From Candidatus Saccharimonadales bacterium (lineage in GTDB: Bacteria; Patescibacteriota; Saccharimonadia; Saccharimonadales; Saccharimonadaceae), in NCBI GenBank assembly GCA_038248455.1, contig JBBRXL010000001.1, forward strand, positions 1-31,937: a stretch of DNA of 31,937 nucleotides. The letters are read 5' to 3'. Both the position numbers and the translations under genes were made by a program. Position 1 is the stretch's first letter. Every line of letters begins with the position of its first letter. Below the pieces are notes generated by a model that saw only the letters and a program-made list of their open reading frames with translations, did not search any database and was not told where the DNA came from. Below are positions 15,609 through 27,272 of this stretch, piece after piece.

Positions 15609-15620
15609 GGGGTGAAAGGA
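15609..15620 (-). repeat. 12-bp direct copy of the tRNA-Pro 3' end (T-stem/acceptor)
   Basis: ggggtgaaagga at 15609-15620 is identical to 15690-15701 within tRNA-Pro. Confidence 0.7.
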
Positions 15621-24177: not shown

Positions 24178-24252
24178 GCGGGCGTCGTATAATGGCTAAT
24201 ATGTCTGCCTTCCAAGCAAACGATGAGAGTTCGATTCTCTCCGCCCGCACCA
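24178..24252 (+). tRNA. tRNA-Gly(TCC)
   Basis: Acceptor GCGGGCG/CGCCCGC, anticodon loop CTTCCAA, T-arm GAGAG-TTCGATT-CTCTC, CCA; TGGTATAAT promoter upstream. Confidence 0.95.
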
Positions 24253-24436
24253 ATTAAAACTCCTCAGCTTGCTGGGGTATTTTAATTGGTATTCGGCTGA
24301 GAATAGAACTCTCATCGCGATTCGCTGAAAGCGAAGAGCCAGATGAGGGTTCGATAACAAGGAGCAAGACAGGAAAGTTTACTTTCACGGATGTGACGCA
24401 GTTATATCTTTAGATATTCTCTCCGCCCGCACCAAT
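24249..24436 (+). repeat. tRNA-Gly-mirrored element: hairpin, inverted T-arm copy, and a direct copy split at the T-loop
   Basis: Inverted copy 24299-24317 (18/19 to 24221-24239); direct copy 24342-24355 (13/14); exact 21-bp copy 24416-24436 = 24234-24254. Confidence 0.85.
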
Positions 24437-24450
24437 GATAGATCATTATA

Positions 24451-24477
24451 GGCGCCAGAATTGGCGTTTCTTTTTTT
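24451..24477 (+). terminator. Candidate intrinsic terminator after the tRNA-Gly element
   Basis: gcgcca/tggcgt stem with a gaat loop, followed by a T tract. Confidence 0.55.
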
Positions 24478-26022: not shown

Positions 26023-26098
26023 GCCCCGGTAGCTCAGTGGATAGAGCAGAGGACTTCTAAGCCTAAGGTCGTTGGTTCGATCCCAACCCGGGGTACCA
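26023..26098 (+). tRNA. tRNA-Arg(TCT)
   Basis: Acceptor GCCCCGG/CCGGGGT, D-stem GCTC/GAGC, loop CTTCTAA, T-arm GTTGG-TTCGATC-CCAAC, CCA; weak anticodon stem. Confidence 0.9.
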
Positions 26099-26281
26099 TA
26101 TTATCAACTCATCCTTTTTTGGATGAGTTTTTAATATAATGCGGGTTGGCATTGAACCAACGACTTTTTGTATAGCAAAAAAAGTCGTTTGTTCGGTGTA
26201 GCAAATGAAATAAAAGAAAGCACCAGAGGTATTTTCTTTTATGAATGAGTGGAGGATGCTGGCAGATTCCCAACCCGGGGT
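26099..26281 (+). repeat. tRNA-Arg-mirrored element: hairpin, inverted T-arm copy, and a direct copy split at the T-loop
   Basis: Inverted copy 26142-26164 (21/23 to 26068-26090); direct copy 26184-26197 (12/14); exact 14-bp copy 26268-26281 = 26081-26094. Confidence 0.85.
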
Positions 26282-26465
26282 CAAATTGGTTATGTTTTTT
26301 AAATAAACAAGTTCTATATATGAGTAATTTGTAGTAATTAAGTCTACATTTATTATAAGCGTTTAATTGATGTAAATTTGAAATAACTGTGTATAAACCG
26401 GTCAAGCTTTTGACAATTTGTATAAATGTGTTGATAAATTACGCTAAACGTGTTACTATTTAAGT

Positions 26466-26512
26466 ACAGCGCCTTGATTTGGACTCGTTCCCGTCAAGGT
26501 TCTTTGTTTTTT
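26466..26512 (+). ncRNA. Candidate small structured RNA upstream of the NYN gene
   Basis: Promoter TTGATA(26431)-17-TACTAT(26454); stem ccttga/tcaagg (26472-26499) with inner gga/tcc pairing; T-rich tail. Confidence 0.35.
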
Positions 26513-26528
26513 ATGCTATAATTTACGA

Positions 26529-27194
26529 ATGAAAACAGTGGTTTACATTGATGGGCAAAACTTTTTATATAAGGCTTCAGAAGTTTTAATTACTGCCGGT
26601 TTAATTGCTAATAAACAAGATCTTTATAAGTTAGATATACGTGGGATAATTTCGGACATTATATCAACTGATGAAATGGAAATTAAATATTACGGTGCAA
26701 AAGTTAAAGTTATTAATCATCTTGGCGACGAGATTAAAGACAAATCTCATAAATTTTCAGATAACTCTAGACGTTTGAGGAATACTCTTAATCAACAATC
26801 TATCAAATATATAGAATCAGGAAAACTTAAGCTTCGCGATAGTGATGAATGTAAGAATTGTGGACATAAAGACTTACGTTTTCAAGAGAAGGGTGTAGAT
26901 GTTGGTATTGCAGTAGATATGATAGTTGACGCCTCAGCTGGCGATTTAGATCAGGCTGTGCTACTAAGCTCTGATACTGACCTCATTCCTGCGGTCAAGG
27001 TTGTTCGTAGCCTTATATCCAATATTGTATATATGGGATTCGTAGATAAGCTAACCAACGCTATCATCTCTCAGGTAACAAGGACTGAAACAATTCGTGA
27101 TAGTGAAATTATAGATGCATTTAACCGCTTGAATCCACAGGAAGTTCTACCTATAGAAATATCGGAAAACTCATCGGACGACCCTATTATTTAG
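26529..27194 (+). CDS. NYN-domain (LabA/DUF88, PIN-like) ribonuclease
   Basis: VYIDGQN, QEKGVDV, LLSSDTDLIP acidic catalytic motifs, CKNC knuckle; AT-rich. Confidence 0.88.
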   Translation: MKTVVYIDGQNFLYKASEVLITAGLIANKQDLYKLDIRGIISDIISTDEMEIKYYGAKVKVINHLGDEIKDKSHKFSDNSRRLRNTLNQQSIKYIESGKLKLRDSDECKNCGHKDLRFQEKGVDVGIAVDMIVDASAGDLDQAVLLSSDTDLIPAVKVVRSLISNIVYMGFVDKLTNAIISQVTRTETIRDSEIIDAFNRLNPQEVLPIEISENSSDDPII

Positions 27195-27211
27195 TAGGTT
27201 AGTATAGTTCT

Positions 27212-27272
27212 AGTTTTTAATATAGTTCGGGCTGGAATTGAACCAACGACTTTTTGCATAGAAAAAATAGTC
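27212..27272 (+). repeat. Second copy of the tRNA-Arg-derived inverted arm
   Basis: 54/61 identical to 26126-26186 by manual alignment; contains the reverse complement of the tRNA-Arg T-arm (20/23). Confidence 0.85.

Follow-up and report, generated by a model that had tools for sequence, protein, structure and literature searches.

The locus behind tRNA-Arg(tct)

The window analysed here (the whole stretch of DNA, 31,937 nucleotides in length) carries a tRNA-Arg(tct) gene followed by an ordered set of inverted and direct copies of the T-arm region of that tRNA, a gene encoding an NYN-domain protein, and a second, shorter set of the same parts. A sister element lies behind tRNA-Gly and a remnant of one repeat lies behind tRNA-Pro. 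The following features were assigned:

26023..26098, + strand: tRNA-Arg(tct), intact (ARAGORN; Rfam tRNA, 62 bits)
26098..26137, + strand: terminator 1, with hairpin core 26106-26129 followed by a T-run
26142..26167, + strand: AS arm, reverse complement of tRNA positions ~46-68 (inverted-repeat match; family profile)
26154..26194, + strand: hp hairpin, arms 26154-26169 and 26179-26194 (16 nt, 94%)
26184..26195, + strand: S5', direct copy of tRNA positions 46-57 with one mismatch
26196..26267, + strand: type A insert of 72 nt, which replaces A58 (match to covariance model R1)
26268..26281, + strand: S3', exact 14-nt copy of tRNA positions 59-72
26282..27211, + strand: cargo-like segment (non-coding leader and NYN-domain gene) between S3' and the second AS-hp copy
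26529-27194, + strand: NYN-domain gene (Pfam NYN, 8e-12)
27212..27272, + strand: second copy of the right half of the terminator, the AS arm and hp, 89% identical to 26126-26186
24221..24436, + strand: sister element at tRNA-Gly, with the same order of parts and a different insert
15609..15620, - strand: remnant S3' copy (positions 60-71) of tRNA-Pro, 81 nt downstream of the original and with no AS arm

The palindrome of terminator 1 extends back to the last base of the CCA end of tRNA-Arg(tct). All of the features that an earlier note had described at this site were found at the places given there, and the start of the structure in that description (26068) corresponds to tRNA position 46. The inverted T-arm copy, recorded in it as 21 matches out of 23 at 26142-26164, was measured as a 26-nt arm (26142-26167) with 88% complementarity to 26065-26090. 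The AS arm forms a self-folding hairpin followed by TTTTT and was called as terminator-like. It is linked to the direct copy by the hp hairpin, whose stem continues the pairing between AS and S5' and whose core (TTTTTG..CAAAAA) is a non-tRNA sequence common to elements at other tRNAs.

The match of the insert to covariance model R1 spans 26187-26274 (E 4.6e-22). The insert opens with a GTAGC head, continues with the long P2 hairpin (26210-26242) and a GGAGGA tract, and ends, after the short P3 hairpin, in GAT. The GAT (26265-26267) is located directly 5' of S3', which lies 187 nt, start to start, from the original; the exact 14-nt resumed copy and the reported spacings of 187 at tRNA-Arg and 182 at tRNA-Gly were thus confirmed. 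The 187-bp Arg unit contains no ORF. If such a unit entered the T-loop as a module, positions 59-76 of the present tRNA-Arg(tct) (26081-26098) would have been supplied by it, and the Arg S3' would represent an earlier 3' end that was displaced and has decayed before the CCA. The second AS-hp copy (27212-27272), which is truncated after hp, is likely an older layer.

The tRNA-Arg(tct) of G018 and that of a relative (loci L002 and L094) have an unusual T-loop, TCCGATT, with C at position 55. At both loci, the direct copy within the element bears the same C55 change as its tRNA.

The module family at other tRNA genes and in relatives

The sister element behind tRNA-Gly comprises a terminator (24262-24277), an AS arm (24299-24317), hp, S5' (24342-24355) and S3' (24416-24436). 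Its repeat is 21 nt long at a spacing of 182, and its S3' is complete to the CCA and is then followed by a displaced terminator at 24450-24469. The proximal tRNA is intact in both the Gly and the Arg element (Rfam, 59-62 bits). Within this 657-kb genome the full layout was found at six of the 31 tRNAs, namely Gly, Arg-tct, Glu, one Met, Leu-gag and Asn, with spacings of 176-195. The tRNA-Gln gene and two tRNA-Ser genes have kept the terminator and the inverted arm, together with remnants.

The earlier note had considered that the similarity in spacing and breakpoints might be reproduced by shuffled controls, and it was not. At six of 30 tRNAs the 3' end recurs within 300 nt as a direct repeat of 12 nt or more (mean of 200 shuffles, 0.0), and eight tRNAs have an inverted repeat of 10 nt or more (mean of 200 shuffles, 0.09). 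When a tRNA was paired with the downstream flank of another tRNA, the corresponding values were 0.35% for direct and 3.5% for inverted repeats.

A plain insertion of 489 bp is located at a tRNA-Met of the same genome (G000, contig C4, 19997-20600). It has a 23-nt repeat beginning at T54, its own terminator and a 90-aa ORF, and, being without an inverted arm or split copy, is of the conventional type of tRNA-site element.

The anatomy of the family was determined from 49 non-identical elements, each anchored on its own tRNA. S5' covers positions 46-57 (match 0.71-0.96), position 58 is never copied (match 0.00), and S3' starts at position 59 (0.82-1.0) and is near-perfect up to position 68, with roughly half of the S3' copies reaching the CCA. 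The AS arm corresponds to positions 46-61 in reverse complement (0.6-0.98) and weakens over the acceptor strand. Anchor matches were higher with an element's own tRNA (11.3/14, 8.9/11 and 11.8/14) than with other tRNAs (8.5, 6.9 and 7.7). Where elements at the same isoacceptor were compared between differing hosts, both AS copies tracked their own tRNA at 54 of 94 positions and were identical at only 14. These values bear out the earlier statement that each copy matches its host tRNA. The tRNA-templated DNA process proposed on that basis agrees with the match of the copies to their own tRNA, but in most cases the data are consistent with units formed beforehand, each with a matched tRNA 3' end and a terminator of its own.

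In the family as a whole, hp frequently reads TTTTTGC-nnn-GCAAAAA. The type A insert starts with a GTAGCG head and ends in GAT; between them lie, in this order, a long hairpin, a GCGGAGGAG tract and a variable hairpin. For this insert RNAalifold predicted 17 pairs, nine of them with compensatory changes, and one G.U pair is conserved in 45 of 46 sequences. In type B the insert (GAGAACTGCC...) occupies the same AS-hp-S5' frame, and the loop is broken after position 54. Inserts are flanked by tRNA positions 46-57 and 59-76 and their ends are only CGGC/GCCG-like; there is no target duplication, position 58 being replaced. Two inserts are inverted relative to AS-hp, one at the G000 tRNA-Met on contig C4 and one at L048, and these take the place of T55, which mirrors A58 within the palindromic loop TTCGAA. 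A search of the window and 16 related loci against Rfam at permissive thresholds returned only tRNA and chance matches to long hairpins.

Behind a tRNA-Gly that has no full element (L003, in G017), the terminator palindrome still contains ACCA..TGGT, and beyond it there is a 7-nt stretch that weakly matches the inverted T-arm. Sites that seem 'empty' may thus be old ones in which an element has decayed.

The layout occurs behind at least 19 isoacceptors in Saccharimonadales, and relatives within the genus have it at Arg-tcg, Tyr, Phe, Lys, Asp, Met, Ser, Asn, Pro and His. An exact pattern derived from the Arg insert was used to scan 185,579 species genomes. This identified 58 stretches, all from Saccharibacteria-type or unnamed MAGs except for one contig binned as Pedobacter. 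Forty-nine of the 59 pattern matches lie 89-304 nt (mostly 100-125 nt) behind a same-strand tRNA, representing 20 isoacceptors, and those that are not behind a tRNA are mostly near a contig end. The same scan gave no inverted pattern matches.

A covariance model built from the insert alignment detected type A inserts in 42 of the 151 genomes that were sampled to represent the order. Matches in other families have the complete layout, often with two layers. Applied to G000, the model finds the Arg, Glu, Asn and inverted Met inserts and misses those at Gly and Leu. Occupancy of a given tRNA varies between relatives. The tRNA-Arg(tct) element is present in G000, G018, G005, G008, G010 and G014; G002 has a truncated one and six further species of the genus have none. 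A tRNA-His element of three relatives is absent in G000. The hairpin of the Gly type recurs at tRNA-Asp in relatives.

Since the Arg insert belongs to a family that is conserved, it is not specific to tRNA-Arg, contrary to what had been assumed, and the view that the Gly and Arg elements share a layout but not a sequence has to be revised: the Arg insert has four detectable copies in this genome besides its order-wide occurrence, and the Gly hairpin is likewise found elsewhere. The related claim that the two are not one duplicated MITE stands in that the terminal inverted repeats and fixed target duplication of a MITE were not found, but falls in that the elements do share sequence. We conclude that the order-wide family of T-loop insertion modules is real. 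It is apparently new to the literature, as full-text searches gave no description of these modules.

Stacked layers, strand bias and candidate enzymes

Loci with two or three layers are common, and decay is more advanced in the outer layers. Stacking was found at L039, L083, L028, L132, L134, L138 and L142; the terminators of successive layers are mostly unrelated, so these terminators were not made by local copying. The distal S3' is complete to the CCA in 15 of the 49 elements. Nine of these 15 copies are then followed by a terminator, compared to one of the 34 incomplete copies. On these counts, the distal copy is best read as a former working 3' end that, together with its terminator, was displaced by insertion at 58|59. 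Genes are also found between modules, namely the NYN gene in the window and two ORFs among three modules behind tRNA-Asn at L065. Mobility of the family is strongly implied by these sequence comparisons.

The repeats recombine among themselves too, and at L135 and L136 whole units are tandemly re-duplicated. Close insert variants occur at different tRNAs, and within such pairs hp and the terminator differ, which indicates that the parts recombine or move separately; this is not predicted by a simple fixed unit. A tree of the inserts required 35 changes of tRNA label compared to 39.8 in shuffles (minimum 35), a weak signal drawn from few columns that is compatible both with one lineage per tRNA and with free retargeting.

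Two further arrangements were observed. At L163:2200-2330 (G053), a tRNA-Met body runs straight into a type A insert followed by a 3'-end copy. An intact proximal copy is missing and ARAGORN does not call a tRNA at this place; this is the product expected from recombination of two 46-57 repeats. At L033:2730-3010 on the minus strand (G018, tRNA-Asp), three consecutive split T-arm units lie without inverted arms between them, the middle one bearing the insert variant found at tRNA-Pro(cgg) of G018.

The NYN gene is patchily distributed (11 of 61 genus genomes) and is also found in other contexts. It was considered as a travelling cassette and rejected as such, since its homologues in other contexts are without flanking tRNA-matched modules. 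Two of the homologues are located beside an apparent large serine recombinase (read by eye). Just 5' of the gene, the window contains a promoter-like site, a hairpin of ~30 nt and a T-run (26431-26528), and this unit is conserved with NYN homologues in the unrelated contexts of L157, L161 and L163. The leader hairpin and the gene look like a linked pair of small RNA and nuclease.

The assembled contigs of one source metagenome run contained no skipping joint. Neither an excised or circular form nor a pair of empty and filled sites within one population was observed. In one metagenome run, the contig over 26070-26567 had a depth of 6.8, compared to 11-13 for its neighbours. This halved depth over the Arg element may reflect a population variant or a repeat effect on assembly.

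The AS-hp-S5' part forms a long hairpin in nearly all 49 elements. The + strand (tRNA-sense) was more stable than the - strand in 35 of 49 cases, with 74 versus 21 G.U pairs. The insert was more stable on the + strand in 42 of 49, and terminators, used as a positive control, in 35 of 49. Bulges are located more often in the 3' arm (29) than in the 5' arm (14), and many of them are A/T bulges of 2-3 nt at the hp/S5' boundary. A tRNA-anchored gapless count placed the G.T excess mainly at positions 57-58, with 22 G.T versus 22 A.C elsewhere. As this count is without bias outside 57-58, the strand bias is real but moderate, and its p-values are inflated because the elements are related to one another. 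It is likely that a folded single strand is involved, since the hairpins fold better on the tRNA-sense strand. The asymmetry itself fits RNA equally. The element contains no sigma-70-like promoter, and the split copy is preceded by two terminator-like sites, a combination that favours a DNA strand over RNA.

The genome encodes one tyrosine recombinase, which scores as XerC, XerD or XerA. A protein of this type is the sole Xer-type recombinase in 40 of the 41 genus genomes. With the integron integrase model TIGR02249 it reached 136 bits against a cut-off of 265, below that for an IntI assignment. No reverse transcriptase was found in the genome. Several other candidates were discarded: an IS110 bridge-RNA system (recombinase in one of 41 genomes), TnpB (only one or two of 41) and extra integrases, which are present in four genomes and in none of them adjoin tRNA repeats.

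Y1_Tnp-like genes of ~205 aa are present in 24 of 41 genus genomes and 45 of 151 order genomes. These Y1 HUH (RAYT-like) genes are statistically unlinked to the type A insert: the gene and the insert occur together in 13 genomes, with 12.5 expected by chance. No Y1 gene was found in the element carriers G000, G010, G014 (99% complete) and G018. At L148, L149, L150 and L151, Y1_Tnp-like genes are each bracketed by inverted hairpins of 18-20 nt that differ between paralogues. This arrangement is the one known for RAYT genes, and the bracketed Y1 genes may constitute a REP-like system in Saccharibacteria.

Interpretation and relation to known systems

The reading that we favour, and consider probable by a modest measure, is that the elements constitute a family of small (~175-220 bp), protein-less mobile modules which integrate in the tRNA T-loop between positions 58 and 59. 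The integrating unit would consist of (i) a copy of positions 59-76, (ii) its own terminator, (iii) AS, (iv) hp, (v) a copy of positions 46-57, and (vi) the insert with its GAT end. After integration, the tRNA would be whole again with the 3' end and terminator of the unit, and the former 3' end with its terminator would be pushed downstream behind the insert. Repeated events would stack layers, and genes could lodge between a 3'-end copy and the next terminator-AS block. The AS-hp-S5'-insert-S3' block may act, as a folded single strand, as the recombination site of the unit. The uninterrupted AS arm would then pair with both halves of the split copy to give a duplex image of the target T-arm, from which the insert would branch off exactly at the crossover. 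Such a unit would depend on an enzyme supplied in trans, for which the single Xer-type recombinase, a Y1 HUH protein and, after natural transformation, RecA are candidates. A more detailed version is put forward tentatively, and we regard it as possible rather than probable: a novel type of integration system in Saccharibacteria, in which enzyme-less cassettes, as folded single strands, would recombine at 58|59 by means of the lone Xer or a Y1 HUH protein of the host. Such cassettes could switch between about twenty tRNAs as targets and, in the manner of integrons, assemble arrays of captured genes behind tRNA genes.

Four other explanations were weighed. The elements could be remnants of double-stranded integrative elements (phages, islands or cis-mobilizable elements) inserted by a tRNA-specific tyrosine integrase that was lost or acted in trans, the inverted arm and insert being attP arm sequences. 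The 3' repeats, the restored tRNA, the position of the newest layer nearest the tRNA and the cargo all conform to the tycheposon model, and the genome contains a plain example in the 489-bp element of the tRNA-Met on contig C4, with its 23-nt repeat and 90-aa ORF. Integrases are tRNA-specific, though, and one module here serves at least 19 tRNAs; the genus genomes have, with one exception among 41, a single Xer-type recombinase, and the extra integrases of four genomes are away from tRNA repeats. The module size is also constant and tiny, and the covariation and strand-biased folding of the hairpins are unexpected for a duplex attP, so that we consider this origin unlikely. Also unlikely is a functional structured RNA made from the tRNA 3' trailer (a decoy, a processing or regulatory element, or a stable non-coding RNA) and kept by selection. 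The compensatory changes, the conserved G.U pair and a tRNA-sense folding bias equal to that of real terminators agree with such an RNA, as does an orientation that is nearly always that of the tRNA; a further, weak point is that 13% of the words sampled from one element occur in two RNA-labelled runs. It is opposed by the two terminator-like sites upstream with no promoter-like site inside, the absence of the element at the same tRNA in sister species, frequent truncation and decay, the stacked layers, occasional inverted inserts and the lack of a match in Rfam. For the same reasons (presence and absence among relatives, stacked layers and frequent decay), the structural element under selection that was envisaged in the earlier note is a poor fit.

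Multiplication of REP/REPIN-like hairpin repeats by a RAYT-type Y1 HUH protein on single-stranded DNA, with the T-arm as the REP unit and a BIME-like alternation, is unlikely as well. Hairpin-flanked Y1_Tnp-like genes do exist in the genus and the order at the frequencies given above, a Y1 gene adjoins an element-bearing tRNA-Met in at least two genomes, and the sense-antisense-sense order and the single-strand folding bias fit. The insert also starts with a GTAG motif, and GTAG is the conserved head of REPs. Against this, the genes and the inserts do not co-occur beyond chance, four element carriers (G000, G010, G014 and G018) yielded no Y1 gene, and the hairpins flanking Y1 genes differ from hp, P2 and P3. 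Finally, the arrangement could be a passive by-product, in which a template switch at the terminator palindrome produces an inverted triplication and a separate small insertion sequence then lands in the spare T-loop, with no movement of a whole unit. PMC11507740 describes the sense-antisense-sense order, which the elements match, as a signature of inverted triplications formed at short inverted repeats. ACCA..TGGT is found in terminator palindromes even without a full element, as in G017, and the tandem re-duplication of whole units in L135 and L136 points the same way. We nevertheless judge this route highly improbable: hp is not derived from tRNA yet is common to different tRNAs, in 19 tRNAs the left boundary lies invariably at position 46, and a search of 169 tRNA loci gave no spare T-arm copy lacking an insert.

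The genomes of Saccharibacteria and their relatives are very small, most of their tRNA genes are present only once, and mobile elements that can be recognised are few. Yet up to a third of the tRNA genes in this genome bear modules, some of which hold accessory genes. If the modules move, they would be a main route of gene flux in this phylum, and DNA could be inserted at one nucleotide of an essential gene without harm. The target-matched arms and the precise breakpoint suggest a recombination logic that could be reprogrammed. In annotating these organisms, split tRNA copies and a new non-coding family should be expected behind tRNA genes.

The modules of the reading favoured here have counterparts in several known systems. 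Among tRNA-targeting integrative elements and their derivatives that lack an integrase, tycheposon arrays insert in the 3' part of tRNA genes, restore the gene, leave partial repeats, push older copies outward and may carry cargo, and CIMEs (cis-mobilizable elements) behave likewise at the 3' parts of tRNAs. The modules share with both the insertion in the 3' part, the restoration of the gene, the partial tRNA repeats, the stacking and possibly the cargo. The marks of tRNA-integrative elements found here are direct 3' repeats, an intact tRNA, presence and absence in relatives, and tandem accretion; an encoded integrase is absent. As differences, the modules have no integrase and are only ~180 bp long, one family serves at least 19 tRNAs, and an inverted and a second direct T-arm copy are added together with a structured insert exactly at position 58.

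The attC sites of integrons and CALINs and the folded attP of the Xer-exploiting CTX phage are bulged imperfect palindromes of which one strand folds better; crossover takes place in a distal arm, and the cassettes are without a recombinase. By analogy, the modules resemble these sites in the arrays of gene and site and the lack of a recombinase inside, and may do so in the bulged palindrome, its strand bias and a crossover in the distal arm. They differ in their target, which is the tRNA T-loop and not attI or dif, and in that the arms of the palindrome are copies of the target; in addition, the only tyrosine recombinase scores as Xer and not as an integron integrase. Like REPs, REPINs and BIMEs, the modules are short extragenic hairpin units of alternating orientation near terminators. 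In contrast to them, the units copy the neighbouring tRNA and not one genome-wide REP, the Y1 genes are unlinked, and the gene flanked by the same, co-inherited repeat that characterises a REPIN/RAYT system was not found. The Dada DNA transposons of eukaryotes encode a transposase, make target duplications of 6-7 bp, target the anticodon or A-box and disrupt multicopy genes. Both Dada and the modules insert, each family at one fixed position, in many kinds of tRNA gene, but the modules, with no transposase of their own, rebuild a tRNA gene that is present in a single copy.
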